This document shows positions 10,755 to 52,093 of a DNA stretch of 64,000 bases, in pieces. Location: positions 121,184 through 185,183 of the forward strand of contig CALVCV010000001.1 of assembly GCA_944326155.1 (NCBI GenBank), in the 5' to 3' direction. The notes beneath the pieces are model-generated. The model had not been told where the DNA came from. It searched no databases and saw nothing but the letters and a program-made list of their open reading frames with translations. A program made the position numbers and the translations under genes. This stretch comes from an uncultured Bacilli bacterium (GTDB taxonomy: Bacteria; Bacillota_I; Bacilli_A; ML615J-28; CAG-313). Positions within the stretch are counted from its first letter, which is position 1. Each line of letters opens with the position of its first letter.

Positions 10755-12389
10755 TTAATTAAGTATAATTTCAAATGGGATAACACCAATTTGATTGGCA
10801 CTAAGATTATTACCATATATAAAACTATCTTGAGCATAACATATTTTTGATAATTTAATATAAGTCAGTTCTTCAGACGGCGAACTTATTGTGTCATCTA
10901 AAATAGATACTTGATCTGTTTCGACTGCTAAAAGATCAATGATAATTTGATTATGCTCAAAAGTATATTTAACCTCTACTTCCTCACCTTCAATATCATA
11001 AAACTTTAAGCCTTGGATTATATCATATTTATCAAAACTATTTACATTTGTAAATACAAGTCTAATTCTCACTTGTGCATCAGTAGAATCATATTCTTTT
11101 ACAGCATTATTTAACATTGGGGCATGATGAGCATTGATACTAAATTGATATAGTCTGCGACAAACTTTCATATAGTCAAGACCTAAAATTTGTAAATTAG
11201 CTAGATTTTCACTATCAATTTCGTATGCTTCTAAATATTTATCATTTACTGAATCATAAACAACGGCTAAATCATATGTTGGTACAATTTCAAAGCGATT
11301 ATAATAATTACATGTATTACTTTGTATTAATCTCAAAATTGCAGCATTGGCAACTTGATTGGTACCTTCTTGAAGATAAAAAATCCTATTTTCAACTAAA
11401 AAACTATTTTCAATTTCGGATAACATAGTATATAACATTTGACTATACACATTTTGAAAAGTATTGATATCATAATTTATATTATTATTCGCATCTATTA
11501 AGTCAGCAAGGCCTTGATGAATAACGATATTTGCATAACTCATCCCTTGCAATTTAGTAAGATACCTTTCTGATAAATAGGACATATCATCTTCTTCTAA
11601 AACTTGTGAATTTGTATATAAGTTCTTACTTACTAAATAATCTTTAATTACTTTTCGTGAGTCAATAATCTCACGACTTAGCCACTGATAAATATTTGAA
11701 TCTTGACTTGTAGCAAAAACAACTGAAATTGGTCTGCGATTCCAACTATTAAAAGTACTTTCAATTTGTCTAATCAATTGATAACCAAAATGAGATATTT
11801 CACGCTGAGCAGGAACCCATTCTTCGTTTAAATAAAACATAAAAGAATAATCTAATTGTCCATTTGCAGGTAAAAGGCTAGTATCAACAGGCACTTCTTC
11901 TTGAATTGGAAAATCGACATTTTCTAATTCATCTCCCATTATCATCCAAACTTCACCAAATTTGATATTGGTATATGTTTCATGATAAATTTCAGTTGAA
12001 TCATAAATTTTTAGTGTATATTCTTTCATACTAGCATCAGGAGTAGCTAAAGATAATCTCCAAAATCCATCATTATCAGTATTACCATAAACCTCACTGA
12101 CTAAAGAATTTTTATAGTTATATAATGCCGCAACCATCACAACACCAGGATTGGATTTACCTTCAATTTTTAAAGTTGAAGAAGCTTGAAAAACAGCATC
12201 ATCTTTCACATATTCGGTGACTGTAAATTTTTCAGTTGGTTTAGAACCGATAGGAATTTTTATGCGATGAACACATCCGCTCGCAAATAAACACCATGCG
12301 AATGTATTGATGATTAAAATTATTTGAAATATTTTTTTCATTATATCACTCCTTCTATGTATTATATCATAAAACATCACTTTAATCAA
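10755..12389 (-). CDS. large secreted lipoprotein of unknown function
   Basis: 544 aa. Signal peptide with lipobox LFASGC. No motif I can place. Cotranscribed with nusB across an 18-nt gap. Confidence 0.5.
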   Translation of the reverse strand: MIKVMFYDIIHRRSDIMKKIFQIILIINTFAWCLFASGCVHRIKIPIGSKPTEKFTVTEYVKDDAVFQASSTLKIEGKSNPGVVMVAALYNYKNSLVSEVYGNTDNDGFWRLSLATPDASMKEYTLKIYDSTEIYHETYTNIKFGEVWMIMGDELENVDFPIQEEVPVDTSLLPANGQLDYSFMFYLNEEWVPAQREISHFGYQLIRQIESTFNSWNRRPISVVFATSQDSNIYQWLSREIIDSRKVIKDYLVSKNLYTNSQVLEEDDMSYLSERYLTKLQGMSYANIVIHQGLADLIDANNNINYDINTFQNVYSQMLYTMLSEIENSFLVENRIFYLQEGTNQVANAAILRLIQSNTCNYYNRFEIVPTYDLAVVYDSVNDKYLEAYEIDSENLANLQILGLDYMKVCRRLYQFSINAHHAPMLNNAVKEYDSTDAQVRIRLVFTNVNSFDKYDIIQGLKFYDIEGEEVEVKYTFEHNQIIIDLLAVETDQVSILDDTISSPSEELTYIKLSKICYAQDSFIYGNNLSANQIGVIPFEIILN

Positions 12390-14724: not shown

Positions 14725-15984
14725 ATGAAACCACTTGCATATTTAATGAGGCCTCATAGTTTTGATGATATCGTAGGTCAAGACCATCTAGTAGGTGAAA
14801 ATGGTGTAATTAGAAAAATGATTAATTCCAATCATCTTTTTTCCTTTATTTTATATGGAAATCCTGGATGTGGTAAAACAACTATTGCTCTTGCAACGTG
14901 TGAGATGGCCAAAATTAAATCCTTTAAATTTAATGCTTCTACTGACAATAAAGAAATATTAAAACAAATTATGAATGAGACAAAATTTCTTGATAAAGCC
15001 ATTATCATTGTTGATGAAATTCATCGTATGAAAAAAGATATTCAGGATTATCTATTGCCTTTTGTCGAAGACGGCACTATTATATTAATAGGCCTTACTA
15101 CTGTTAGTCCATATCATTCGGTTAACCCTGCTATTAGAAGTCGTTGCAATATCTATCGTCTAAATGATTTGACAACTGATGATTTATTAAAAGTTTTAAA
15201 ACGTGCCCAAACATATATTGACCGCCCTTTAAAAATTGATGCGGATGCTTATAATTATATTATTTCTACCGCAAATTCTGAAATTAGAACATTGATTAAT
15301 AATTTTGAGACCATTGCTTTTACTTCGACTGAAAACCATATTACTCTTGATATTGCAAAAAGTTATATTCAAAAACCAAATGTTGCAATTGATGCCAATG
15401 GTGATAGTTACTATGATACACTAAGCGGTTTACAAAAATCTATTCGAGGTAGTGATGTAGATGCTTCCTTGCACTATTTAGCTAAACTCATCATCGCAGA
15501 CGACTTAACAAGCCTAAGTAGAAGACTTTTAGCAATAGCTTATGAAGATATTGGACTTGCCAATCCTACAATAGGTCCCCGTGTCAAAGCAGCAGTTGAT
15601 GCCGCAATTGACCTTGGAAATCCAGAAGCAATGTTGCCCCTTAGTGTAATTGTTATTGAAATGGCATTATCTCCTAAATCAAATTCGGCTTATCTTGCAA
15701 TTCATAGTGCTTTAGATGACGTGAATAATGGAAATACTGGTAATTTACCTCTTCACTTAAAAAATTCTTATTCTTTTAATCCTAGCCAAGGCCCTTATTT
15801 ATATCCTCATGATTATCCTAATGCTTGGGTATATCAACAATATTTACCAGATGCTATCAAAAATCGCAAATATTATTATCCAAAAGATAGCTCTAAAATT
15901 GAGATTGGTCTAAAAGAACGTTATGAATTAATTGAAAAATATAAAATGGATGCTATCGCAAAATTACATGCAAATAAAAAATGA
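14725..15984 (+). CDS. rarA: replication-associated recombination protein A (AAA+ ATPase RarA/MgsA)
   Basis: 419 aa. Start MKPLAYLMRPHSFDDIVGQDHLVG, Walker A GNPGCGKTT, Walker B IIIVDEIHR, and the MgsA C-terminal domain. Confidence 0.9.
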   Translation: MKPLAYLMRPHSFDDIVGQDHLVGENGVIRKMINSNHLFSFILYGNPGCGKTTIALATCEMAKIKSFKFNASTDNKEILKQIMNETKFLDKAIIIVDEIHRMKKDIQDYLLPFVEDGTIILIGLTTVSPYHSVNPAIRSRCNIYRLNDLTTDDLLKVLKRAQTYIDRPLKIDADAYNYIISTANSEIRTLINNFETIAFTSTENHITLDIAKSYIQKPNVAIDANGDSYYDTLSGLQKSIRGSDVDASLHYLAKLIIADDLTSLSRRLLAIAYEDIGLANPTIGPRVKAAVDAAIDLGNPEAMLPLSVIVIEMALSPKSNSAYLAIHSALDDVNNGNTGNLPLHLKNSYSFNPSQGPYLYPHDYPNAWVYQQYLPDAIKNRKYYYPKDSSKIEIGLKERYELIEKYKMDAIAKLHANKK

Positions 15985-15990
15985 TGTACT

Positions 15991-17646
15991 TTAAAACATA
16001 TCATTTTTTTTTGGATTTATACTTGATTGTTCACTTTCAGTCATTTGTAATAGAGTCATTCGCAGAATAATACTTTTGTATAATAGATAACCTTCAACTT
16101 CATGATTTAATAAATCAAATCTTTGATAACCTAAATATTTTTTAGAATATTCGCTTTCTTGATCTAAGAAAATTTTATATTGAAATAAATTTAATAAGTT
16201 TTGATATTTTAAAGTTGTATCATTTAAATGAAAAATAAAAAAATAACCATAAGTTGTTGTCACTTCTATCATATACATAATTTTTTCTAACAATTTACTA
16301 TCAGTCAAAATTTTTTCACAACCAGTAATAATAATTAGTTCGTAACTTATTTTGGTCGAATTTTTGCGATTGTATTCTTCAATCGTTGAAATATTTAAGG
16401 TATTAAATTTATTAATTCGTTCACTTACTTTCACCAAAATATGATCTAATTCACCAATATCAGTGCTAGTGGCAAAATTACTACTTTTTAGTAAATCAAT
16501 ATAGTAATATTTGATATTGGATTTATAATACATCATAGCAAGAATTAAGCTATCAATATAAAGGCTTACCCTTTTAATATTACTTCCAAAAATAACAAGT
16601 CTTGTATTGGTCGCATCAAGAGCTACTAATTCATTTCTATCATCAATGCCAAAGATGATTTCATTATCTGATATATTTTGTAATTCATATATTCTTAAAG
16701 GTGTAGGAACTAAATTATTGATTTCTACTAATAATTCTTTTGTATTTTCGTCTTTTTTTAGTTGGAAATTGTGAATGTAATTTTTTAAATTTCTGTCAAA
16801 AACCTCATAACTAAAGTTATAATGAGAATTAATAAAATAAACTGTAATATTGCGACAAATAAGATATGTGATGTCATTGTAAAAAACATTCATACTATTT
16901 AAAACTTTTTTAATGGTATCAACATTTCTTTTGGCAAATTCAAATTCACGGCTATAATATTCAGTACTATTTACTTTGCTAATTTTAAATTTTATTTTGG
17001 TTTTGGTATATGATTTATCATATTCATCTACTTTATTTTTTAAATTCTTGGTTATTTTTTTATAGGAAAAATAAATTTTTTTACCAAAATCAATTATCAT
17101 TTTAATGAAATCTTTTATCGTTTTTTTACAGATGAAAACAATACCTAAAAAAAATAATAAGATGCTAATAAAAATAACTCCTATTTCTGATAATAAATAA
17201 TAACATAGATAAAATAAAATTGCTCCAATAATACCGCCACCACTAATAGAATCAGCACTTTCAGTACTAAAACTATTAACATATAATTTTATTGTTGTAA
17301 CTAAAATATTTCCTTCATACGATTTAAGATAGCGATGCATACTAAAATGTGATAAAAGAATTAAAGATAAAATCATCATAAAAATTCCTAAATAGCGAAT
17401 ATTATTAATTTTTAATCTAGTATGCACAATGATACATCGAATTGCATATAGTATCATAAGTAAAAAAATTAAAAAATACCAATCACCAAATAAGACTTTT
17501 GTAATAAGCATTAAATATTGGCCTACTAGACCCATTTTAGAAATAGCCAACATTGATAATACCAATAGTACGATACCTAAAATTTCATAATGAAAAAGTC
17601 TTTCTTTTTCTTTAATTCCAATATTTTGTACTTTTTCTTTTGCCAT
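15991..17646 (-). CDS. FtsK/SpoIIIE-family membrane protein with degenerate ATPase motifs (predicted pseudo-translocase)
   Basis: 551 aa. The N-terminal 4-TM domain aligns to the SpoIIIE/FtsK N-terminus: FHYEILGIVLLVLSMLAISKMGLVGQY, FGDWYFLIFLLMILYAI, SGGGIIGAILF. The C-terminal region aligns to the motor core, but Walker A reads LVIFGSNIKRVS and Walker B reads YELIIITGCEKIL. There is no gamma domain. Confidence 0.6.
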   Translation of the reverse strand: MAKEKVQNIGIKEKERLFHYEILGIVLLVLSMLAISKMGLVGQYLMLITKVLFGDWYFLIFLLMILYAIRCIIVHTRLKINNIRYLGIFMMILSLILLSHFSMHRYLKSYEGNILVTTIKLYVNSFSTESADSISGGGIIGAILFYLCYYLLSEIGVIFISILLFFLGIVFICKKTIKDFIKMIIDFGKKIYFSYKKITKNLKNKVDEYDKSYTKTKIKFKISKVNSTEYYSREFEFAKRNVDTIKKVLNSMNVFYNDITYLICRNITVYFINSHYNFSYEVFDRNLKNYIHNFQLKKDENTKELLVEINNLVPTPLRIYELQNISDNEIIFGIDDRNELVALDATNTRLVIFGSNIKRVSLYIDSLILAMMYYKSNIKYYYIDLLKSSNFATSTDIGELDHILVKVSERINKFNTLNISTIEEYNRKNSTKISYELIIITGCEKILTDSKLLEKIMYMIEVTTTYGYFFIFHLNDTTLKYQNLLNLFQYKIFLDQESEYSKKYLGYQRFDLLNHEVEGYLLYKSIILRMTLLQMTESEQSSINPKKNDMF

Positions 17647-17704
17647 TATTTCACCTTCTACACTAGTACTATTTAATCATATTGCATTCGTTTTTTTTGT
17701 AGAA

Positions 17705-17741
17705 AAAGAAAAACACTCTAGAAATACTAGAGTGTTTTTAC
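17705..17741. terminator. intrinsic terminator downstream of rpmG
   Basis: Hairpin AACACTCTAG-aaata-CTAGAGTGTT (17712..17736) with flanking A and T runs. Confidence 0.7.
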
Positions 17742-17896
17742 TACTTTTTAGTTTTTTCTTTGTGTAAAGTTGTTTTTTTACAACGTGGGCAATATTTTTT
17801 TTGTTCTAAACGATCTGGAGTATTACGTTTATTTTTTTCGGTTAAATAATTTTCTTCGCCACATTCAGTACACTTTAAAATAAAATTAATACGCAT
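17741..17896 (-). CDS. rpmG: 50S ribosomal protein L33
   Basis: Not in the ORF track (51 aa). Manual translation: [51 protein letters not shown]. Carries the L33 CxxC...CxxC zinc ribbon. GGAGGAA RBS. Confidence 0.85.
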
Positions 17897-24346: not shown

Positions 24347-24955
24347 ATGATTTCAAAAAAAGATTTACTTATTAAAACAAATATTTCGTATGGTCAACTA
24401 TATCGGTGGAAACGTCAAGGGTTAATTCCTGAAGAATGGTTTGTTAAAACTAGTTCTATAACAGGACAAGTTACTTTCTTTGATGAAGATTTAATAATAC
24501 CTAGAATCCAAAAAATCTTAGATTTAAAAGATGAATTTTCTATTGATGAAATCAAACAAATTTTAAACCCTTCGCCAAGCGAAATTACCTTTTCCCTCAG
24601 TAAACTAAATAAATTACAATGCTTTGATGGACGAATTTTAAAAAAACTTGTTGATCATGAAACCGATTTGAATATTAACGAAGTAGTAATTTTGTACGCT
24701 TTATCTAAAGCACGAAAGGATATTGAAAAACATTTTTATAAAATTAAATTTGATATTACACTTTCTGAATTTAAAAATTTTGATTTTACTAACGCGAAAA
24801 TGGCACTTATTTCTAAAAAAAGAGAAGGATATATTCTTTTTTTCAATGATTCATTGATTGCTTCAGATAGTGAACTTGAAATCAAACATTATAATTTAAG
24901 TGATTTACAACAAGAACTTTTAGAAATTATTCGCAAATTATCTTATCGAAATTAA
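24347..24955 (+). CDS. YhbD-like protein with an N-terminal MerR-type helix-turn-helix (DUF4004-like)
   Basis: 202 aa. N-terminal KKDLLIKTNISYGQLYRWKRQGLIPEEWF resembles a MerR-type HTH. Followed by a bactofilin-like gene, as in the Bacillus yhbD-yhbE-yhbF arrangement. The family name is recalled from memory. Confidence 0.45.
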   Translation: MISKKDLLIKTNISYGQLYRWKRQGLIPEEWFVKTSSITGQVTFFDEDLIIPRIQKILDLKDEFSIDEIKQILNPSPSEITFSLSKLNKLQCFDGRILKKLVDHETDLNINEVVILYALSKARKDIEKHFYKIKFDITLSEFKNFDFTNAKMALISKKREGYILFFNDSLIASDSELEIKHYNLSDLQQELLEIIRKLSYRN

Positions 24956-24964
24956 GGAGGCAAT

Positions 24965-25660
24965 ATGGAAGATTTAAAAATTAGTGGTTATGGTAAAGCA
25001 AATGGAGGCAATTTTAAAAAAATCGTCATTACAGGCTTTGGCGAAATTTTTGAGGATGCAATTTGTAGCGACTTTCATGGTTCTGGTTCAGTTAAAATTC
25101 GTGGCAAATTACAAACTGAAAATTTAAAATATAATGGGGATGTCAGTGTCGATAATAATCTAATTACAAATACTTGTGATGTCACAGGTAAACTTAGTGT
25201 AAAAGGAAATATTATATCAAATAATATTTCGATATTCGGTGATATAGGTATTCTTGGCAATTGTAGCAACAGCAATTTCATTAAAATAAATGGAAATTTA
25301 TCATGTTATGGTAATATTACTTGTGAAAGTTTTAAATTAAATGGAGGATCAATTTCTATTAATGAAGAATTATGTGCTGAAATAGTCGAAATTAAAAGCA
25401 CACAAATTGATATAAATGAAATTCATGCTACCAATGTTGTAATTAGCAAACCATTTATCCTTAGTATGAAGAAAAAGCACATAAATATTAATGAAATTGA
25501 ATGTACATCAATTGTTGCTGCTCAGTTAAACTGTAAAAAACTATGTGCACAAAATGTAAAATTATCAAAGAACTGTATTGTAGATACATTAGAATATAGT
25601 GGAAACCTAGACCTTGAAGATGGCTGCATCATAAAAGAACTCATTAAAATTGAAAAATAG
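24965..25660 (+). CDS. bactofilin-like polymer-forming cytoskeletal protein (YhbE/YhbF-like)
   Basis: 231 aa of repetitive beta-helix-type segments: G.V.V.N..I.G...V.GK. Asn/Gly/Ile/Val-rich periodicity. GGAGG RBS. Confidence 0.55.
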   Translation: MEDLKISGYGKANGGNFKKIVITGFGEIFEDAICSDFHGSGSVKIRGKLQTENLKYNGDVSVDNNLITNTCDVTGKLSVKGNIISNNISIFGDIGILGNCSNSNFIKINGNLSCYGNITCESFKLNGGSISINEELCAEIVEIKSTQIDINEIHATNVVISKPFILSMKKKHININEIECTSIVAAQLNCKKLCAQNVKLSKNCIVDTLEYSGNLDLEDGCIIKELIKIEK

Positions 25661-25685
25661 TTATGATAACATAACTATTTTTTTT
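25658..25685. terminator. bidirectional intrinsic terminator
   Basis: Hairpin TAGTTATG-ataa-CATAACTA followed by T8. Overlaps the convergent gene ends. Confidence 0.7.
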
Positions 25686-26317
25686 ATCTGATCTTCATAA
25701 TCTTTTTCGCTATAGGAAATTTTAAAAATTTCAACATCTGCTTGTTTTTTAAAATCATGCTTTGGAAAATCACATAAATATAATTTTTTTATATTACTAG
25801 AAAAATCTAAATTAAAATTTGGATTACTACTAAATAAATAAAGTTTTTCATGATATTTAAGCATAATTTCAATTAAATAACTTTTTTTATCATCTAACAG
25901 TTTAGCACCATAACATATAGTAAAGATATTTTGATATTGAGTAAGTAAGAAAAAATATAAATTAATAGCTAATAAAAAAGTTTCATATATAAAATATTGC
26001 AAATGAAAATTTTGATGAAAATGAAGAATAATAAACTCTTTTTTATAAATAATTTTATCAATTACACCAATATTTAAATAAGCTTTTAGTAATTCAAATA
26101 GATAACTGAGTTTATTAAACTCAATGGTTTCAATATGAATGATACCTGTTGTATCACGAAAATAACTAATTTCTTTTTTACAAATAATTTCTTTAACTAA
26201 ATATCGCCACATAAAAGGATATTTTTTTAAATATTGATAAGAATATTTTAAAAATTTTTCATCAACTGGTGATTGTTCAATAGAAGTTATGATATAGTTT
26301 TTATCAATTATTGTCAT
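25661..26317 (-). CDS. hypothetical protein
   Basis: 218-aa ORF. No motif recognised. The start codon immediately follows the rnj terminator. Confidence 0.4.
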   Translation of the reverse strand: MTIIDKNYIITSIEQSPVDEKFLKYSYQYLKKYPFMWRYLVKEIICKKEISYFRDTTGIIHIETIEFNKLSYLFELLKAYLNIGVIDKIIYKKEFIILHFHQNFHLQYFIYETFLLAINLYFFLLTQYQNIFTICYGAKLLDDKKSYLIEIMLKYHEKLYLFSSNPNFNLDFSSNIKKLYLCDFPKHDFKKQADVEIFKISYSEKDYEDQIKKIVMLS

Positions 26318-26364: not shown

Positions 26365-28032
26365 CTATTTACTTATATCAATTAATGTACACATAATAAC
26401 AGGACGGTGTTTTGTCAAACGTAGAACCAATTTGGATATTTCTTCTTCCACTACATTAGATACTTCATTAGAAGAAAAACGCTTTTTTACTAAATTATTA
26501 TTTACAATTTTAGTTGCAAGTTCTTCAATTTTTACATCTAATTCACATTGTTTAGTAGAAAAACCTTTGGTAATACAACTTGGAACAGAAATGACTTTTC
26601 GTAATCTACTATCAAAATTAATAAGTAAAATAATTACTCCTTCTTCAGCTAATGTTTCGCGATCATTAATAATTTCCTCATTCACATTACCGAGCAATGA
26701 GCCATCAACAAAGATATCGCCAACATGAATATGACCATCTTTCACCATTTTGCCATCCACAAAATTTACAATTTCACCATTTTGTAATAAAATGATATTT
26801 TCATCTTTAAACCCTGCATCTTTGGCAACCAATGATTGTTCATACATATGACGATATTCACCTTTAATAGGAATAATATATTTTGGTTTCAACATGGAAT
26901 ATAATAATTTTAAATCATCTTTATTTGCATGTGAACTTGACAAAATCTTTTTATCAAAAACTTCAATGTTTATATCATAGCGATATAATTCATTTAGTGA
27001 TTTGATTGCATATTTTTCCGTACCTGGTACTGGTGGACACATCATGACAACTGTGTCTTTCGCATTTAATTTAATAAATTTATCATTGCCAGATGCCATT
27101 TTTAAAATACGTCTATATGGTTCATTGCGAATACCAATGGAGATGATTACTAAATCTTTTTCGGTGTTTTTATCATAATCATCTACTATTGAATCAAGAT
27201 ATACTAATTTTTCACTTGGAATAGTTAAATAATGATTATCAATAGCAATATTAACAATTTTTTCTGATTTTTTACCAATTATCGCAATTTTACGATTCAT
27301 TTCAAGTGATAAACTAATAATTTGTTGAATTCTTCGCAAATCAGACGAATAAGCCGAAACAATAATTCGATTGTCAGTATTTAATAAAATATTTTTATAT
27401 GTATGATTCAAGATACTATCATTTTTAATGCGATTGATTGCACCAGAGCCTATACTTTCACTTAGTACTGCAAGCACTTTTTGCTTACTCAAATCAGTTA
27501 TTTTGTCAAAAGAAGTTTGATATTTCTCATGACTATTTGGTGTAAAATTAAAATCCGTACAATAGACAATTGCACCATCCTTGGTATGAATTGCTATGCC
27601 AATTGATTCAGGTATACTATGTGTCGTATTGAAAAAAGATACGCTAACCTCACCAAATTTTAACATTTTATTCTCATTAATTCTAAATAGTTTAAAATCT
27701 TTTATATTCATCTTATTATCAGAAAGTAAATTTTCAATCAGTGAAATTGTAAAATGAGTTCCATAAATTCTAGTAGGAATTAATTTTAATAAATATGGTA
27801 AAGCGTTGATATGGTCTTCATGTCCATGGGAAATAAAAATGCCTTCAACTCGATCTTTATTTTCGACTAAATAGCTCATATCAGGAATTACTGCATCAAC
27901 TCCATACATGTCAATATCAGGATACTTTATACCAGCATCTAGAATAAAAATGGATTTTTCAACTTCAACAATATACATGTTTTTACCATTTTCACCTAGA
28001 CCACCTAATGCGAAAACTTTAATATTTGCCAT
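26365..28032 (-). CDS. rnj: ribonuclease J (metallo-beta-lactamase / beta-CASP)
   Basis: 555 aa. Motif HGHEDH and the MANIKVFALGGLGENGKNMY N-terminus typical of RNase J1/J2. Confidence 0.9.
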   Translation of the reverse strand: MANIKVFALGGLGENGKNMYIVEVEKSIFILDAGIKYPDIDMYGVDAVIPDMSYLVENKDRVEGIFISHGHEDHINALPYLLKLIPTRIYGTHFTISLIENLLSDNKMNIKDFKLFRINENKMLKFGEVSVSFFNTTHSIPESIGIAIHTKDGAIVYCTDFNFTPNSHEKYQTSFDKITDLSKQKVLAVLSESIGSGAINRIKNDSILNHTYKNILLNTDNRIIVSAYSSDLRRIQQIISLSLEMNRKIAIIGKKSEKIVNIAIDNHYLTIPSEKLVYLDSIVDDYDKNTEKDLVIISIGIRNEPYRRILKMASGNDKFIKLNAKDTVVMMCPPVPGTEKYAIKSLNELYRYDINIEVFDKKILSSSHANKDDLKLLYSMLKPKYIIPIKGEYRHMYEQSLVAKDAGFKDENIILLQNGEIVNFVDGKMVKDGHIHVGDIFVDGSLLGNVNEEIINDRETLAEEGVIILLINFDSRLRKVISVPSCITKGFSTKQCELDVKIEELATKIVNNNLVKKRFSSNEVSNVVEEEISKLVLRLTKHRPVIMCTLIDISK

Positions 28033-30842: not shown

Positions 30843-31331
30843 TCACCTAAATAAATAAATTACGTTTCCGACAATAAAAGCACTAAGCACTCCTGCAACA
30901 ATTACCGCTCCCGCAAGTTTAAACATATTAGACATTATCCCTAAAATAATACCTTCACTTTTACTTTCTAATGCTGATGAAGTCATCGAATTAGCAAAGC
31001 CAGTAATTGGAATGATAGTACCAGCACCTGAAAATTGACCAATTTTATCAAAGATACCAATTCCTGTTAAAAGGCTTGTTATACCTACAATCACAATATA
31101 CATCAAACTTATTGCTTTATCTTTTTCAATATTCAGTAAATCTTTAAAAAACCATAATATTCCTTGTGCAAATAAACAAATTGTACCACCTACAAGAAAT
31201 GCTTTAATAGAATTTAAAAAGATAGGTCTTTTAATAGTATTTCTATCCAATACTTTTTTAAAAATACTTTTTTCCATGAAATTACTTCCTTTCATGTTTT
31301 TAGTATTAGTATTTTTTACCATTGTATACAA
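30843..31331 (-). CDS. spoVAC: stage V sporulation protein AC
   Basis: 162 aa, 4 TM segments, glycine-rich GAGTIIPITGFANS. The ORF-track start is a TTG; the in-frame ATG is at 31322. Confidence 0.8.
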   Translation of the reverse strand: MYTMVKNTNTKNMKGSNFMEKSIFKKVLDRNTIKRPIFLNSIKAFLVGGTICLFAQGILWFFKDLLNIEKDKAISLMYIVIVGITSLLTGIGIFDKIGQFSGAGTIIPITGFANSMTSSALESKSEGIILGIMSNMFKLAGAVIVAGVLSAFIVGNVIYLFR

Positions 31332-31343
31332 AAAAGTGAAAAT

Positions 31344-31649
31344 TTACTTTTCACTTTTTGAAATTGTGGTTGTAGTTTGAATAAATTCCCATGTTTCATC
31401 ATATTGAATATCAACTTTTCGCAAACTTTTTTTTATTGCTTGCAAGATAATTGGAATAGCAAATTTTGCAAAATTGCAATTTTTTTGTAAATCATATAAT
31501 CTAACCGCTTGAATTAATCCTCTAAACCCAGCTTGTAACAAAATTTCTCTATTTTGATATGGAACATTCATCTTATCCACTAATAGATAAACTAAAATTA
31601 GATTCTCATTGATGATATACTCATAATTATGATAGTTCCATCTGTTCAT
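31344..31649 (-). CDS. sigF: truncated sigma-F-like protein (sigma region 2 only, 101 aa); possible pseudogene
   Basis: It aligns to SigF/SigG region 2.1-2.4: ILVYLLVDKM..., LLQAGFRGLIQAVRLYDLQKNCNFAKFAIPIILQAIKK. It overlaps spoIIAB by 23 nt, as native sigF does. It stops 12 nt before spoVAC. Regions 3 and 4 are absent. Confidence 0.6.
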   Translation of the reverse strand: MNRWNYHNYEYIINENLILVYLLVDKMNVPYQNREILLQAGFRGLIQAVRLYDLQKNCNFAKFAIPIILQAIKKSLRKVDIQYDETWEFIQTTTTISKSEK

Positions 31650-32064
31650 TATACTTTTTCACCATTAATACTTTTGTTCCTTCATTTAGTTTTGATTTCA
31701 CCTCTAGTTTATCCGTAAAAACCTCCATAATTGTAAATCCTAATCCAGCTCTTTCTTCTTCTAATTTAGTTGAAAAAAGAGGTTCTCTTGCTTTTTCAAC
31801 ATCTTCAATTCCCACTCCGTCGTCGATTACTTCAATATAAATATTTTTGGCATCATATGATAAATTTAATTGTACATATTTATTTTCATTAGATAGACAA
31901 CCATGTACAATGGCATTTGTTACAGCTTCAGAAATAACTGTTTTTACCTCATTTAGAAAATTAAGTGGTAAGTCTAGCCCTACTAAAAATCCCACTCCTA
32001 CGGTTCTTGCTAACATGACATTATCTACTTTTGCCAAAAAGGATGTTCTAATTTCATTATACAT
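31627..32064 (-). CDS. spoIIAB: anti-sigma F factor (serine kinase SpoIIAB)
   Basis: 145 aa. Close match to the B. subtilis SpoIIAB pattern: EIKTVISEAVTNAIVHG, GVGIEDVEKAREPLFSTK, GLGFTIMEVFTD. Confidence 0.85.
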   Translation of the reverse strand: MYNEIRTSFLAKVDNVMLARTVGVGFLVGLDLPLNFLNEVKTVISEAVTNAIVHGCLSNENKYVQLNLSYDAKNIYIEVIDDGVGIEDVEKAREPLFSTKLEEERAGLGFTIMEVFTDKLEVKSKLNEGTKVLMVKKYNEQMELS

Positions 32065-32414
32065 TACATTACCTCCACAATTTTAGCTGCCTCTGTTTCG
32101 TTTGCAGCAACACTACAAATTTTTTTTAGCCCTGACAAATTAAAAATTCGCTCAATTAGTCGATTCATTGAACAAATTACAATTCTACCATTTCTTCTTC
32201 TTACCTGCGAATACCTTCCGATTATAAAACCTACACCACTACTATCCATAAAATTTAATTTTTCAAAATTAAATATTAAATATTTTATCTCATATTTGTC
32301 TATTAGTTCACTTATCCTAATTTTCAATTTTTCAGTTACTGCTTGATCCAATTCCCCATTTAAGCGAACAAATAACATATTTTTTCTAATTGACATTTGT
32401 ATATTGACTGACAT
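32064..32414 (-). CDS. spoIIAA: anti-sigma F factor antagonist (STAS domain SpoIIAA)
   Basis: ORF track gives 32064..32606. Trimmed to MSVNIQMSIRKNMLFVRLNGELD at 32414, with a GGAGGGG RBS. STAS motif FMDSSGVGFIIGRY carries the phosphorylatable Ser. Confidence 0.8.
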   Translation of the reverse strand: MSVNIQMSIRKNMLFVRLNGELDQAVTEKLKIRISELIDKYEIKYLIFNFEKLNFMDSSGVGFIIGRYSQVRRRNGRIVICSMNRLIERIFNLSGLKKICSVAANETEAAKIVEVM

Positions 32415-32535
32415 CTTATCCCCCTCCATTAAAATTTTAACATAAATTATTACTTGATACAAAAAGAATTGATTACCAAAAATAAAGCTCTCATAAAACG
32501 ACATTTTATTAAGGGCTTTATTTATCAAAAAATAT

Positions 32536-41038: not shown

Positions 41039-41599
41039 TTATTCGTCAATATTAGAATCATCATAACTTTTTTTATTACTTTCAATCACAATTAATGTGC
41101 CAATTCCCACACAAGCCGTAGTAAGTAAGGCAAAAAATATTGAAATCGTCCAATTTACTTCTTCTTTTAACCATCTTCCTGCAGGTATATAAAATTTTTT
41201 ATCATTTTTTTCATAATTATCTACATTTATATAACTAATTTCAAGTTCCAAAGTGCCAGTTTGCCAATTTTCAATCGTGTAATTAATTTGATAATAATGT
41301 TTGTGTTTATCATTTTCATTATCGACTTGATGATAATATTCAATATTTGAAAAAATTTGTTCAATATCGGCAATTTTAGAAGTAATTGCTGTGATAATAA
41401 TTTCTTTTTCGGTACTCCAGCTTAAAGATAATTCAACTTTTAATTTTCCATGCTCACGAATTTTAGCTGTTTCAAATTCAAAATTTTCAAATTCTACATC
41501 ATCTTCTATAGCAAACACCTCATTTGATGATTTGCAACAAATACAACAACAAATCGTTAAAACTAATAATAATAATGCTATTTTATTTATTTTTGTCAT
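41039..41599 (-). CDS. membrane-anchored protein with an N-terminal Cys cluster (CCCICC) and a C-terminal TM helix
   Basis: 186 aa. Signal-like N-terminus LLLLVLTICCCICCKSS. C-terminal TM segment ISIFFALLTTACVGIGTLIVI. Confidence 0.4.
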   Translation of the reverse strand: MTKINKIALLLLVLTICCCICCKSSNEVFAIEDDVEFENFEFETAKIREHGKLKVELSLSWSTEKEIIITAITSKIADIEQIFSNIEYYHQVDNENDKHKHYYQINYTIENWQTGTLELEISYINVDNYEKNDKKFYIPAGRWLKEEVNWTISIFFALLTTACVGIGTLIVIESNKKSYDDSNIDE

Positions 41600-42045
41600 T
41601 AACGATCACGCTCCTTAAAATTTTTTAAGTATTTATTCAAGGAAGCATTACTAATTTTAACTCTCAAAACGGAAATTAAAACAATAATAACAAGACCAAT
41701 TACTAAAAACATAATAGTCGCGATAAATAATTTAACATTATAAATTAAGTCATAAAAATAAAGCAAATAACCTGTTATTAAAATAATGGCTGATAAAAAT
41801 AAATAGATTACAATAACTTGAACAACAATCGAAATTTTATTTATTTGCAAAAACCCCAATAAAAACAAACTAGCAACTGATGAAATAATAGCAAAAATGA
41901 TTAAATTCTTACCAAAACTAATATCTTGATAAATATACTCCGAAATACTTGCAAAAATAATTGTAATAATGGCAAAAATTGTTAGGGTCATAACAAAATA
42001 ATTGGTAACAAGACTTTTTATTGGTAGTTTTTTCTTCTGTTTCAT
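41599..42045 (-). CDS. small polytopic membrane protein (candidate LytTR-system membrane partner)
   Basis: 148 aa, about 4 TM. Lies 13 nt downstream of the LytTR gene. Confidence 0.45.
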   Translation of the reverse strand: MKQKKKLPIKSLVTNYFVMTLTIFAIITIIFASISEYIYQDISFGKNLIIFAIISSVASLFLLGFLQINKISIVVQVIVIYLFLSAIILITGYLLYFYDLIYNVKLFIATIMFLVIGLVIIVLISVLRVKISNASLNKYLKNFKERDR

Positions 42046-42057
42046 TATTTTATTCTC

Positions 42058-42495
42058 CTATCCATTTAATTTTTGCTTAAAAGCTCTTGCATATACTCGA
42101 GTAATAATCATACGCTCATTGTTTATTAGTACAGCACTAATTCTTCCATTAACAAGAGTACTAACTTTTTCAATTTTATTGATATTTAAAATAATAGTTC
42201 TTGCAACTTGTATAAAAGATGTTCTAGCCAATATCTTAGTTAATTCTTGAAGTTTATAATTTACTTCATAGACATTTTTTTCTACATATGCAAAGACGCG
42301 ATTTTCCACAGCTTCAAAATAAAAAATATCGTCTAGGTTTAAAACATACGTTTCGCCATCCAATTTTCCATTAATCGTAATATAGCTTGTACGGATATAA
42401 TTACTAATTTTATGGATTTTATCATCTATTTTTTTACATTTAATGAAAATTTCTGTTTCTTCTAAATTTGAAACTTCATCAATTTGTAATTTCAT
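42058..42495 (-). CDS. LytTR-family DNA-binding protein (stand-alone, no receiver domain)
   Basis: 145 aa. LytTR-like pattern in KISNYIRTSYITINGK...FIQVARTIILNINKIEKV. Confidence 0.65.
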   Translation of the reverse strand: MKLQIDEVSNLEETEIFIKCKKIDDKIHKISNYIRTSYITINGKLDGETYVLNLDDIFYFEAVENRVFAYVEKNVYEVNYKLQELTKILARTSFIQVARTIILNINKIEKVSTLVNGRISAVLINNERMIITRVYARAFKQKLNG

Positions 42496-42512
42496 AAGTC
42501 ACCTCGCTGCTT

Positions 42513-43337
42513 CTATTTAAAACGGTTGCGGTATGTGCATTTCTTACACAATTCAAAATAGGGCTTCCGATTATTAAAGCCTAAAAGAGCTTCTTGACAA
42601 GTTTTACTAGCAAGTAAAGTAGGTAAATCATTAGTTAATAAATTACCAATTTTCGTTTTTCCCTGATAATCAAGGCAACACAAACAAAGCGTACCATCAT
42701 TTAAAATAGCAAACTGTTTTTTTCCACCATAACAGTTTGTTAAAGTGGTATTATAACTATGTTCTAGGGAAGGCCAAGTAAATTCGTCTGCTTTTGAAAT
42801 ATTAATATTAATACTACTTTTTACTATAGGTTGATAAATTTGTAATACTTTTTGTGTTAACAATAAATTAGTCAAATAATTTTTATTATTCCATAATCTT
42901 AAATTTATAGCAATCAAATGTTCTTTTTTTGATCTTTTTTCTAAAAATTCATTTAAATGCTTAAAATACAAATCTTGCTCAGCTTCATCAAAATTAATTA
43001 AACACTGGAGAGAAATATTTAATTTTTGTAAATATTGATATTTTAAGAGTTGATTTTCATATTTATATAACAACACTCCATTGGTAGTGATACCAAAAGG
43101 AATTTTATGTACTTCACAATAATCTAATATTTTGATAAAATTAGGATGCAAGGTAGGTTCGCCTAAAACATGAAAATAAAGAATTTTAATATACTCATGA
43201 ATTTTATCAATAAGTTGTATAACCATTTCAAATGGCATAAATTTATGTTTTTTAACATTAGATGATGGACAAAAAGGACATTTTAAATTACATGCTGTAG
43301 TAATTTCTAAGTAGAAATTATATTTTCTTTTGTTCAT
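42513..43337 (-). CDS. radical SAM enzyme with a C-terminal Cys-rich (SPASM/twitch-like) extension
   Basis: 274 aa. CNLKCPFCP is the CxxxCxxC motif. C-terminal Cys pattern: C-x15-C-x-CC...C...C-x2-C. Confidence 0.8.
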   Translation of the reverse strand: MNKRKYNFYLEITTACNLKCPFCPSSNVKKHKFMPFEMVIQLIDKIHEYIKILYFHVLGEPTLHPNFIKILDYCEVHKIPFGITTNGVLLYKYENQLLKYQYLQKLNISLQCLINFDEAEQDLYFKHLNEFLEKRSKKEHLIAINLRLWNNKNYLTNLLLTQKVLQIYQPIVKSSININISKADEFTWPSLEHSYNTTLTNCYGGKKQFAILNDGTLCLCCLDYQGKTKIGNLLTNDLPTLLASKTCQEALLGFNNRKPYFELCKKCTYRNRFK

Positions 43338-43894
43338 TTGTCAATTTCTTCAAATTCCGCATCAATAAAACTATTACCATTTGCTTGTTCCTCTTGCTTT
43401 TTAAAATGATTATTCGAAATAAATAGTAAAATAAATCCGTATGCTATAATCAAAATAGATATAATACGTAAAACCCACATACCTATATTTTCAATACCAC
43501 AAAAAATTAGCATTAAAGAAATAATGATTTTATATATTGCAATGCTAAATAAATCTTTTATTTTTTTAGTAAAAATTGCCATCAAAATTGTATAAAGCAA
43601 AAAACAAATACCTAAAATTAATGATACTAATCTCGATGAAAAAAACAATATAAATATACCAAAAATTATTTTAATAATACCATCATATAAATAGTTTTGA
43701 TGAAATGAAAAATTTATTTTCTTAATATTTATATGAATATATATAATGATACCACCAATAATGATTAAGCAAATTCCTAATATTTTTACAATTGCGTTGA
43801 TGATTGCGTCTCCAAAAGGCCATACAATGAGTGCAAAAATGGTACCTAAAATAATATAATACATACCAATCATAGATTTTTTATTCATAAACAT
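43334..43894 (-). CDS. polytopic membrane protein
   Basis: 186 aa, 5-6 TM. 4-nt overlap with the radical SAM gene. Confidence 0.5.
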   Translation of the reverse strand: MFMNKKSMIGMYYIILGTIFALIVWPFGDAIINAIVKILGICLIIIGGIIIYIHINIKKINFSFHQNYLYDGIIKIIFGIFILFFSSRLVSLILGICFLLYTILMAIFTKKIKDLFSIAIYKIIISLMLIFCGIENIGMWVLRIISILIIAYGFILLFISNNHFKKQEEQANGNSFIDAEFEEIDK

Positions 43895-43904
43895 ACGTTA
43901 ATCC

Positions 43905-44243
43905 TTATATAGTAGTTTTAGCAAAAAGTTTCAAATTTTTATTTGGCATAACTGACTCATTAAATAAAGTCATACATTCTTCATCTAAATACCAAGTATC
44001 TATATCTTGATAAGAATAAGAAAGAATTATATCTTTTTGTTTATAATATTTTGTATAGACTAGTTTTCCATCTACATAATAACGAATACGAAACTTTTTA
44101 AAAAAAATTAAGTATGCAATTAAGATAAACCATGGTAAAATGCCTAAAGTAAGCAAAATAATTTGAAAAGCATACCAATTTTTGCCTAATTCGTCAGCGG
44201 GAACATTTTCTAGTAATAAAAAAAAGCATCGAATATTAAACAT
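43905..44243 (-). CDS. small single-pass membrane protein
   Basis: 112 aa. One TM helix (FQIILLTLGILPWFILIAYLIFF) and a Tyr/Lys-rich C-terminal domain. Confidence 0.4.
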   Translation of the reverse strand: MFNIRCFFLLLENVPADELGKNWYAFQIILLTLGILPWFILIAYLIFFKKFRIRYYVDGKLVYTKYYKQKDIILSYSYQDIDTWYLDEECMTLFNESVMPNKNLKLFAKTTI

Positions 44244-44964
44244 TATTTGTCTCCTTTAATTCTAAAATACGATATTTCCATTTTTTATTCAATATAGTTA
44301 AATATTTTTTTGATGTTAATAGTATTAATTTTTGATACACAAAAAGCAAATCATTTTTTGCTCCTTCATCTAAAAGTTTTTGATATACTTTTTCCATATG
44401 AAGAGCTACTAATCGGTAGTAATAATATGCATTAATTGGTTTATTTAAATTATAAAAAGCATTAGCTAAAAACAATTTAGATAAAACTATAAATTTTAAA
44501 TCTTCATTGGTTTTGGTCTTTTTATATAATTGTTTTGCCTTATGTAACATTTTTTTACTAGTTATAACAATATAATTGCCATCATTATTATCAAACATCA
44601 AATTAATCGTTTTGATATACCAATCAATTAAATATCTTAATTCATCCATGCTAGAATTAATTTCTGATGAATCTTGCAAAATACCAATAATTTTTTGATA
44701 CCAACGTTGAACTAAATCTTTTCTTGAATTATTCACATAATACTCACTTATTTTTTGATAACATTCTATCACTTTTAGGCGATCTTTATGAGAAAAGGTG
44801 TGGCGATATAGATTTTCAGCAATTCTACAAGTTTTTAAATATAACTTTTCAGCTTCAATCATGTTTCCATTTAGTTCAAAATTATTTGCTTGTTGCAAGA
44901 TTTCAGAAAGCTTTATTCTTTTTTCATTGTTTGTTAATTCTTTTTTGTCAATTTTAGTTTCCAT
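44236..44964 (-). CDS. soluble all-helical (TPR-like) protein, first gene of the operon
   Basis: 242 aa. AAAGGG RBS. Overlaps the next gene by 8 nt. Confidence 0.4.
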   Translation of the reverse strand: METKIDKKELTNNEKRIKLSEILQQANNFELNGNMIEAEKLYLKTCRIAENLYRHTFSHKDRLKVIECYQKISEYYVNNSRKDLVQRWYQKIIGILQDSSEINSSMDELRYLIDWYIKTINLMFDNNDGNYIVITSKKMLHKAKQLYKKTKTNEDLKFIVLSKLFLANAFYNLNKPINAYYYYRLVALHMEKVYQKLLDEGAKNDLLFVYQKLILLTSKKYLTILNKKWKYRILELKETNNV

Positions 44965-51268: not shown

Positions 51269-52093
51269 TCATTTTTCAGCATCAGAAATAAATTGTTTCA
51301 TCTTATCAATTGCACCTTTTTCAATAATTTGTGCTCTTTGTCTAGAAATGGCAAATTTATTAGCAATATCACTAAAAGAATGAAAAATACCATCATCATA
51401 TCCATAACGATACTTAATAATTCTAGCCTCCCTTGGTGAAAGTTCAGTAAGAGCAGCTAAAATTAATTTGTTTTTCTCATCATTCAAAACAGCTTCTTGT
51501 GGCGTATCTTCATCATCTTTTATGATTTCAATTACACTTGTATCTTTATCTGAATCAATTACTTTATCAAGTGAAGCAACATTTGATATATCAAATAGCA
51601 TTCTCAATTCAGATGGTTTTACGCCCATTTGATGAGCAACTTCATCAAAAGTAACTTTTCTTTGTAAAGTAGATACCATTTGTTCTTCGGTTACAAAAAA
51701 TTGTTTTTTCAACTCTGATATGTTATTTGGTTGATCAGCATTTTTTAGAGCTTTATGTAACCCTTTACTAATGCTTTGTTTAATCCAATAACTGGCATAT
51801 GAAGCGAACTTAATACCTTTATGATAATCAAAACGATCAACCGCTTTAGAAAGGCCAATCATCCCTAATTGAACAATATCATCATTTGAAAGGGAGCCAG
51901 TTGGATAATAATTTTTAGCAATACTATAAACTAATTTAAGGTTAGCTTTAATCATAATGGTTTGAACATCTTCTCGAAGATTACTATGTTTTTCGAGTAG
52001 CATAAATATTTGTTGTTCTTCTTCGAATGTTAATAATCTTTTTTCGCCAAGTTCTTCACAAGTCAATAGTTCTGTAATTATATCTTTTTCCAC
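51269..52093 (-). CDS. sigma-70 family RNA polymerase sigma factor (compact RpoD-like, regions 2-4)
   Basis: 274 aa. Region 2.4 FASYASYWIKQSI resembles the group-1/2 sequence FSTYATWWIRQAI. Region 4 HTH: LSPREARIIKYRYG...ISRQRAQIIEKGAIDKMK. Confidence 0.75.
   Translation of the reverse strand: MEKDIITELLTCEELGEKRLLTFEEEQQIFMLLEKHSNLREDVQTIMIKANLKLVYSIAKNYYPTGSLSNDDIVQLGMIGLSKAVDRFDYHKGIKFASYASYWIKQSISKGLHKALKNADQPNNISELKKQFFVTEEQMVSTLQRKVTFDEVAHQMGVKPSELRMLFDISNVASLDKVIDSDKDTSVIEIIKDDEDTPQEAVLNDEKNKLILAALTELSPREARIIKYRYGYDDGIFHSFSDIANKFAISRQRAQIIEKGAIDKMKQFISDAEK

Follow-up and report, generated by a model that had tools for sequence, protein, structure and literature searches.

A membrane-anchored FtsK/SpoIIIE-like protein family of uncultured gut Bacilli that has lost the catalytic motifs of the DNA pump

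Introduction

FtsK and SpoIIIE act at the membrane and septum as well as on DNA: this role is essential for division in Escherichia coli and contributes septal pore stability and membrane fission in sporulating Bacillus. Bacillus also carries a soluble second FtsK, SftA, an active translocase with a gamma domain and no membrane domain. The membrane/septal role and DNA pumping are hard to separate genetically. Here, we analyze a gene in a 64,000-nucleotide stretch of DNA from an uncultured Bacilli bacterium (assembly GCA_944326155.1, contig CALVCV010000001.1, positions 121,184 to 185,183; hereafter the window), whose 551-residue product keeps the four-helix transmembrane (4TM) domain and motor shell of FtsK. 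The canonical P-loop, catalytic glutamate, arginine finger, and gamma domain are all lost. The protein is very likely a pseudo-translocase descended from SpoIIIE/FtsK, and the family to which it belongs would be a natural separation-of-function variant.

The closest described system is Bacillus subtilis SpoIIIE, with which the family shares a MAK-rich N-terminal tail, the 4TM motifs YE..G, FG.W, and GGG.IG, the alpha and beta folds, a background of sporulation genes, and probably a chromosomal slot that follows RNase J and, in one lineage, precedes an M16 pair. Unlike SpoIIIE, it lacks Walker A, Walker B, TQRPS, and gamma, has a linker of ~50 rather than ~95 or more amino acids and a beta domain ~30 amino acids shorter and more acidic, and is best conserved in the 4TM domain, not in beta. 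E. coli FtsK differs in having the catalytic motifs, a long linker, and gamma, and in its neighbor rarA, which is co-directional there and convergent here.

The transmembrane (TM) domain of SpoIIIE confers stability and septal localization, and the translocation-dead mutants spoIIIE36 and D584A have a limited effect on compartmentalization (PMC13627676). SpoIIIE also mediates septal membrane fission (PMC4423119). As a membrane-anchored SpoIIIE predicted not to pump, the family resembles the spoIIIE36 and D584A alleles, which in B. subtilis reveal a separable structural role (PMC13627676). Those alleles, however, are point mutants that fail sporulation, whereas the family is naturally fixed, extensively remodeled, and conserved clade-wide.

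Degenerate members of the FtsK/HerA fold are also found in secretion ATPases. In EccC and EssC, the nucleotide motifs of the DUF domain and D2/D3 are degenerate, and these domains serve regulation or assembly (PMC11154593). Those are extra domains of multi-ATPase proteins that retain an active domain and are encoded in secretion clusters; the family has a single ATPase-like domain, which is dead, an FtsK 4TM as its anchor, and a housekeeping gene context. SftA and the coupling proteins TcpA/ConQ likewise belong to the FtsK superfamily, and TcpA is the second-best fold match to our protein, but in coupling proteins the Walker motifs are intact, the TM anchors are of other kinds, and the genes lie in mobile-element contexts.

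Results

An FtsK-type membrane anchor joined to a motif-less motor shell

The gene and the domains of its product map as follows; the coding sequence is from the list of open reading frames (ORFs), and the three motif positions are from column alignment with canonical FtsKs.

15991..17646, minus strand: coding sequence of the putative pseudo-translocase, 551 amino acids
17122..17595, minus strand: FtsK/SpoIIIE-type 4TM domain (res. 18–175), with FGDWYF and GGGIIG
16966..17121, minus strand: short basic helical linker (res. 176–227)
16663..16965, minus strand: FtsK alpha-like domain (res. 228–328), with conserved E308/N311 (VEINN)
16012..16662, minus strand: RecA-like beta domain without catalytic motifs (res. 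329–545), no gamma after it
16564..16599, minus strand: degenerate Walker A position LVIFGSNIKRVS (res. 350–361), no GxxxxGK[ST]
16306..16344, minus strand: degenerate Walker B position YELIIITGCEKIL (res. 435–447)
16213..16242, minus strand: TQRPS (sensor/arginine-finger) position, reading FFIFHLNDTT (res. 469–478)

Homology to FtsK is readily detected at the N-terminus, where 194 amino acids align with canonical FtsK at 30% identity (pairwise E = 8e-21, database-wide E = 3.7e-17). An initial annotation of this DNA, made from the sequence without database searches, had placed the first ~190 residues in the 4TM domain of FtsK/SpoIIIE, and this assignment holds. Its peptide strings are located at residues 22–43 (ILGIVLLVLSMLAISKMGLVGQ), 53–58 (FGDWYF), and 135–145 (SGGGIIGAILF), and AlphaFold2 (AF2) predicts the four helices at residues 2–36, 39–74, 83–107, and 138–173. 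The linker that follows is modeled as a helix (res. 177–212), has an isoelectric point of 9.95, and spans ~50 residues versus ~95 in P0060, the closest canonical FtsK.

As a single sequence, the protein falls below the threshold of the Pfam FtsK_4TM model PF13491 (E = 0.011, 15.8 bits, cut-off 23.1). The Pfam search gave no match to the motor model PF01580, a phmmer search of the PDB gave no matches, and an NCBIfam scan of the query yielded one weak, meaningless match only. Yet PF13491 is matched by 28 of 50 family members, and a profile of 50 members, with no canonical FtsK among them, recovers canonical FtsKs from 1.84 billion representatives on both the 4TM and motor parts (E = 1e-50 to 1e-33), the canonical 4TM at about E = 1e-47. 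The hidden Markov model check suggested with the initial annotation thus comes out in favor of FtsK homology at the level of the family. Against the PDB, the same profile matches YukB/EssC (4.5e-8), the E. coli FtsK motor 2ius (1.2e-6), EccC, and TcpA, and all these matches run through the C-terminal half.

The motor homology extends to the core clade. With the less-degenerate members removed, hhalign pairs residues 236–545 of the query with residues 276–635 of the 737 in P0060 (296 columns, E = 4.9e-5). Across the whole of alpha and beta, the C-terminal half is collinear with canonical FtsK, and the alignment halts before gamma. The AF2 model (pLDDT, the predicted local distance difference test score, of 86.8) contains a single ATPase-like domain whose best fold match is FtsK over alpha and beta, with TcpA second and EccC and YukB/EssC also matched. 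Profile, hhalign, and fold comparison, the last also proposed as a check, therefore agree with the earlier reading of the cytoplasmic part as a motor core. The conserved residues of this half correspond to structural, not catalytic, motifs of FtsK: E308/N311 to G-V-E-I-P-N of alpha, G333/D335/N338 to L-G-x-D-I-x-G, N426 to the Y-N turn, and R529 to R-I-Q-G. Gly467 is conserved as well.

The catalytic positions are all replaced. LVIFGSNIKRVS aligns exactly on the Walker A columns of canonical FtsKs (AGATGAGKSV), YELIIITGCEKIL aligns exactly on the Walker B columns (LVIIDELADL), and FFIFHLNDTT falls on the HLIVATQRPS column, so that the three positions read FGSNIKRV, IITGCE, and HLNDT in the query. 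The Asp-Glu pair of Walker B has become Thr-Gly, and Asn-Gly in most of the clade. The initial annotation had recognized the altered P-loop and Walker B; TQRPS, a motif that we take from the FtsK-HerA superfamily to provide the sensor glutamine and arginine finger, is degenerate too, and HLNDT is not conserved within the clade of the window. The gamma winged-helix domain, which reads the FtsK-orienting polar sequences or SpoIIIE recognition sequences (KOPS/SRS), is missing, as predicted: the protein stops where the linker to gamma would start (equivalent to residue 635 of 737 in P0060), and a Pfam scan gave no match to PF09397. The protein thus has the 4TM, alpha, and beta domains of the FtsK/SpoIIIE family and none of Walker A, Walker B, TQRPS, or gamma. 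It combines the three features of a pseudo-ATPase, namely a homologous fold, lost catalytic residues, and purifying selection.

Motif loss is common to an undescribed family

A word-indexed search returned 68 relatives. About 55 are full-length, unannotated proteins of ~545 amino acids; a few of ~560 amino acids match PF01580, and the others are canonical FtsKs of 737–749 amino acids with alpha, beta, and gamma. An exhaustive search enlarged the family to ~75 clusters at 50% identity, with full-length members of 493–630 amino acids (E = 1e-218 to 1e-62). In a common alignment, none of the examined family representatives has GxxxxGK[ST], an in-register Walker B Asp-Glu, or TQRPS, and all canonical matches of at least 713 amino acids carry G[AST]TGSGKS, IDE, and TQRPS. 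Degeneracy of the motif positions, whose conservation the initial annotation had proposed to map, is therefore common to the whole family. Two patterns can be distinguished. In the clade of the window, the loop differs from member to member (examples are GSNIKR, SINKKR, GQNKNN, and GTDKEQ), and the Walker B position holds IINGL[DE]K (IITGCEK in the window protein). A large sub-clade instead has a conserved, shifted loop, G-x-x-x-S-G-I-[KR]-[TN], an arginine at the finger position, and I-I-N replacing I-D-E.

The identical 551-residue protein is encoded on 11 contigs, the longest of 285,824 bp, from several metagenome samples and one NCBI record. Together with the family-wide degeneracy of the motifs, this rules out a sequencing or assembly artefact. 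The family is carried by 17 GTDB species representatives, all metagenome-assembled genomes (MAGs) of uncultured gut Bacilli labeled ‘Staphylococcus sp. CAG:324’, ‘Mollicutes’, ‘Acholeplasmatales’, ‘Staphylococcaceae’, ‘Coprobacillus’, or ‘Bacilli bacterium’, and one distant member comes from an ‘Anaeroplasmataceae’ MAG. No Pfam or NCBIfam model for it was found, members are unnamed or hypothetical in public records, and a limited full-text search found no paper on a 4TM-anchored, gamma-less, motif-less FtsK/SpoIIIE family. We conclude that the family is undescribed so far and that its members should not be filed or annotated as DNA translocases; without a family model, annotation pipelines will miss them or miscall them as such.

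The searches also brought up P0265, a protein of 3075 amino acids in which the family profile matches eight separate segments and the aligned segment keeps Walker A/B intact. P0265 is apparently a giant protein built of several FtsK domains.

Constraint is inverted relative to canonical FtsK

Selection was estimated by the Nei-Gojobori method between the unsaturated orthologues of loci L005 and L010 (synonymous divergence, dS = 0.57). The ratio of nonsynonymous to synonymous divergence (dN/dS) is 0.051 overall, 0.022 in the 4TM domain, 0.064 in the linker, 0.027 in alpha, and 0.061 in beta. All domains are under purifying selection, and the gene is being kept rather than decaying. Columns conserved to at least 90% in the family alignment number 28 of 158 in the 4TM domain and 9 of 217 in beta, with none in the linker. 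Among close relatives, identity is 68% in the 4TM domain and 47% in beta; canonical FtsKs in the same comparison show the opposite (beta 69–73%, 4TM 42–53%). Conservation is therefore inverted relative to FtsK, the 4TM domain being better kept than beta. The family beta domain, ~30 residues shorter than the canonical one, is also more acidic (net charge −4.0 versus −0.2, p = 4e-10), which fits, indirectly, a loss of DNA handling.

A probable SpoIIIE slot on the chromosome

The following features surround the gene.

17651..17658, minus strand: ribosome-binding site GAAGGTGA, from the sequence read
17676..17703, minus strand: weak match to a sigma-70-like promoter (TCTACA-16-TATGAT), past the rpmG terminator and ahead of the gene
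17709..17739, minus strand: strong intrinsic terminator closing the rpmG unit, 13-bp stem and T run
17741..17896, minus strand: rpmG, ribosomal protein L33, 51 amino acids, directly upstream of the gene
14725..15984, plus strand: rarA/mgsA, convergent, its stop codon 6 nt from that of the gene
26365..28032, minus strand: RNase J gene, ~9 kb upstream of the gene

The core order is rpmG, the family gene, and a convergent rarA. The rpmG gene lies directly upstream in the window and in all seven other loci or lineages inspected for it. Across proteins of 28–77% identity, the window and 19 of 20 related contexts (17 genomes plus P0059 and P0065; loci L005–L021, L026, and L032) have rarA next to the family gene and convergent with it, the exception being L027. 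RNase J is immediately upstream in the divergent loci L014, L015, L017, and L018, where it precedes the rpmG-family gene pair, and in L026; in the window, a phoH-ybeY-cdd-era-recO-PPIase-FNT-ADH block, which includes genes for a peptidyl-prolyl isomerase (PPIase) and an alcohol dehydrogenase (ADH), parts it from the family gene.

Canonical genes are found in a similar setting. A canonical 787-residue SpoIIIE of a Bacillaceae-like genome lies in the order asd-dapG-dapA-RNase J-TepA-YlzJ-SpoIIIE-GntR-M16-M16-...-pgsA-cinA, and the canonical FtsKs of a prevalent ‘Tenericutes’ clade lie in the order EzrA-FtsK-PNP_UDP-M16-M16. Locus L026 reads AA_kinase-RNase J-x-family gene-rarA(−)-...-PNP_UDP-M16-M16. 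The M16 and PNP genes of L026 and L029 share 24–47% identity, which is uninformative on how the lineages are related, and a literature search found nothing on the B. subtilis rnjB-tepA-spoIIIE gene order. Because the slot appears to be shared with canonical SpoIIIE/FtsK, the family gene probably corresponds by position to the SpoIIIE/FtsK gene of Bacilli, as an orthologue and not an add-on paralogue. The initial annotation had called the protein a catalytically dead paralogue: loss of the motifs under selection bears out the first part, but the term paralogue is unproven and synteny points the other way.

Between RNase J and phoH (24347..26317), three genes encode proteins of 218 and 231 amino acids without a Pfam match and a 202-residue DUF4004 protein. 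These genes sit where, in Bacillaceae, RNase J is followed by TepA/YlzJ/SpoIIIE.

In E. coli (L028), ftsK and rarA are linked as well, in the order ftsK-lolA-rarA. We know of no explanation for this recurrent linkage of ftsK-like genes with rarA, which, here and in E. coli, hints at a functional connection. E. coli RarA has been described as co-expressed with FtsK (PMC6458690).

The gene starts with an ATG 4 nt past its ribosome-binding site. The upstream rpmG unit has its own near-consensus promoter and is closed by the terminator at 17709–17739, and the family gene is therefore monocistronic, a separate transcription unit. Sigma-70-like matches in its upstream region are no more numerous than in shuffled sequence, and inspection by eye found no convincing match to a sporulation-sigma promoter upstream of the gene. 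The window has a G+C content (GC) of ~28%, with nearly all genes on the minus strand, and the region of the family gene has the lowest value in it (0.233).

Sporulation genes of the organism

The organism carries spo0A, spoIVB, dacF-spoIIAA-spoIIAB, spoVAC/D/E, and gerA. The cluster dacF-spoIIAA-spoIIAB-sigF-spoVA includes the following features.

32064..32504: spoIIAA
31627..32064: spoIIAB
31344..31649, minus strand: sigF-like ORF, 101 amino acids, weak Sigma70_r2 match, no regions 3/4
30843..31331: spoVAC, starting 13 nt past the short sigF-like ORF

The short sigF-like gene is also called on the independent contig L023, so it is not a one-off assembly error. A tie between it and the family gene, as raised in the initial annotation, is circumstantial. 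A full-length sigma factor (274 amino acids, regions r2-r3-r4) is encoded at 51269..52093. In L027 (5801–9853), the pseudo-FtsK gene is beside murG-murB-ftsZ and follows spoIIGA-sigE-sigG after a gap of 68 nt, and read-through from this sporulation operon could occur.

Proposed role and alternative explanations

Our analysis favors, with a probability of roughly 0.6, a SpoIIIE/FtsK-descended pseudo-translocase that does not pump DNA and has a structural role at the septum. The 4TM membrane domain and a folded alpha/beta motor shell have been kept from the presumed SpoIIIE/FtsK ancestor. ATP binding and hydrolysis would have been lost with the lysine and glycine loop of Walker A, the Asp-Glu of Walker B, and the arginine and sensor of TQRPS, and, judging from these losses, DNA pumping should not be possible. 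The 4TM domain may target the protein to the division or sporulation septum, as with FtsK and SpoIIIE. There, the protein would perform a pump-independent structural job, such as septal pore or divisome stabilization, membrane fission, or partner recruitment, with the dead motor acting as an oligomerization or docking module held near the membrane by the short basic helical linker. By analogy, a scaffolding function is a reasonable inference. The family alignment points to the parts of SpoIIIE/FtsK that carry the pump-independent function, and the family adds a bacterial cell-division case to the catalogue of pseudoenzymes. It also prompts one to ask how chromosomes are cleared or translocated in these abundant gut Bacilli, which are uncultured and low in GC.

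Several points weigh against this interpretation. The specific septal-scaffold role, for which analogy is the only basis, has at best an even chance of being right, and the strong constraint on the dead alpha and beta domains (dN/dS 0.03–0.06) implies a specific role beyond the one proposed here. The AF2 alignment and profile A1 contain less-degenerate members, and the motor homology is weaker without them (hhalign E = 4.9e-5, probability 68%). Given the SGI[KR][TN] loop and the arginine at the finger position, some members may still bind a ligand. As for orthology, M16 synteny is found in one lineage only (L026), and P0064 (L027) sits elsewhere, after spoIIGA-sigE-sigG. Finally, the search for an active FtsK covered the window, its ~10-kb flanks, and 17 related loci, and one may coexist elsewhere in the genome.

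The protein might instead be an extra paralogue beside an active FtsK/SpoIIIE, which would join this enzyme in mixed hexamers or 4TM assemblies as an inactive subunit and so tune, anchor, or inhibit the pump. FtsK-like translocases are nearly universal in Firmicutes, with two in Bacillus, and from this general knowledge, an active FtsK or SftA elsewhere in the family-bearing genomes is likely. The fold and a probable oligomerization shell are under purifying selection, and EccC/EssC offer known cases in which degenerate FtsK-like domains regulate active ones (PMC11154593, PMC9436818). However, tblastn found no canonical FtsK in the 64-kb window or in the 17 related genome loci fetched, and neither FtsK nor SftA is present in the Pfam-annotated ~10-kb flanks beyond the window. 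The family gene appears to occupy the SpoIIIE slot itself. A homologue search with P0060 returned the prevalent ‘Tenericutes/Mycoplasmatota’ FtsK clade, and prevalent lineages whose slot contains a canonical FtsK seem to be without the family, the contig and prevalence profiles being non-overlapping. We consider a paralogue of this kind unlikely.

A bolder possibility starts from the same slot: the SpoIIIE/FtsK orthologue itself may have turned non-pumping, with no active FtsK-type translocase left in these gut Bacilli. This is doubtful. If true, a clade with spo0A, spoIIAA/AB, spoVA, gerA, and spoIVB would complete division, and perhaps sporulation, with no ATP-driven pumping of the chromosome. 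Of the functions of SpoIIIE, it would retain only the structural one at the septum, which might be linked to RarA-dependent processing of forks or termination. The interest of the family would rise substantially if the genomes that bear it prove to be without any active FtsK.

In a further alternative, the non-canonical P-loop would be a switch that controls conformation or assembly by binding ATP or another ligand, which it would not hydrolyze. It suits the SGI[KR]T sub-clade better than the clade of the window: the sub-clade loop has Lys/Arg shifted by one residue and is accompanied by Arg at the TQRPS position, and beta is strongly constrained, but in the window’s clade, the loop is unconserved and Walker B has become Asn-Gly or Thr-Gly. 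For the family as a whole, we regard such a switch as improbable.

The two remaining explanations can be set aside. A decaying ftsK/spoIIIE pseudogene, or an assembly or frameshift error, might be suspected from the missing catalytic motifs and gamma and from the lowest GC of the window, but it is effectively refuted by an intact frame of the same length in ~75 clusters, the overall dN/dS of 0.05, the 11 independent contigs, the good ribosome-binding site, and the confident AF2 model. A secretion or conjugation coupling protein (EssC-like, of a type VII secretion system (T7SS), or TcpA/VirD4-like) rather than a division protein could account for the profile and fold matches to YukB/EssC, EccC, and TcpA. 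It is rejected on the best fold match to FtsK alpha and beta, the FtsK-specific 4TM N-terminus, the single ATPase-like domain, and housekeeping neighbors (rpmG, rarA, RNase J, Era, RecO) conserved across 17 genomes. The marks of T7SS EssC/EccC (two to three tandem ATPase domains, an FHA/DUF N-terminus, and WXG100/Ess neighbors) and those of conjugative coupling proteins (intact Walker motifs and a mobile-element context) are absent from the protein and its surroundings; no WXG100/Ess or mobile-element genes occur among the neighbors of the family gene, which are rpmG, rarA, an iron-type ADH (Fe-ADH), and RNase J.

Other observations in the window

Two further loci encode proteins without Pfam matches. 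An ORF of 544 amino acids (10755..12389, minus strand), between spoU and nusB, has relatives at 33–64% identity in L005, L007, and L010. The other is a cluster of small proteins (242, 112, 186, 148, and 186 amino acids; ~41039..44964, minus strand, and L023 6059–9984), in the midst of which lie a radical-SAM/SPASM enzyme (42513..43337) and a protein with a LytTR domain. This cluster may be a locus for a ribosomally synthesized and post-translationally modified peptide (RiPP) or for peptide signaling.

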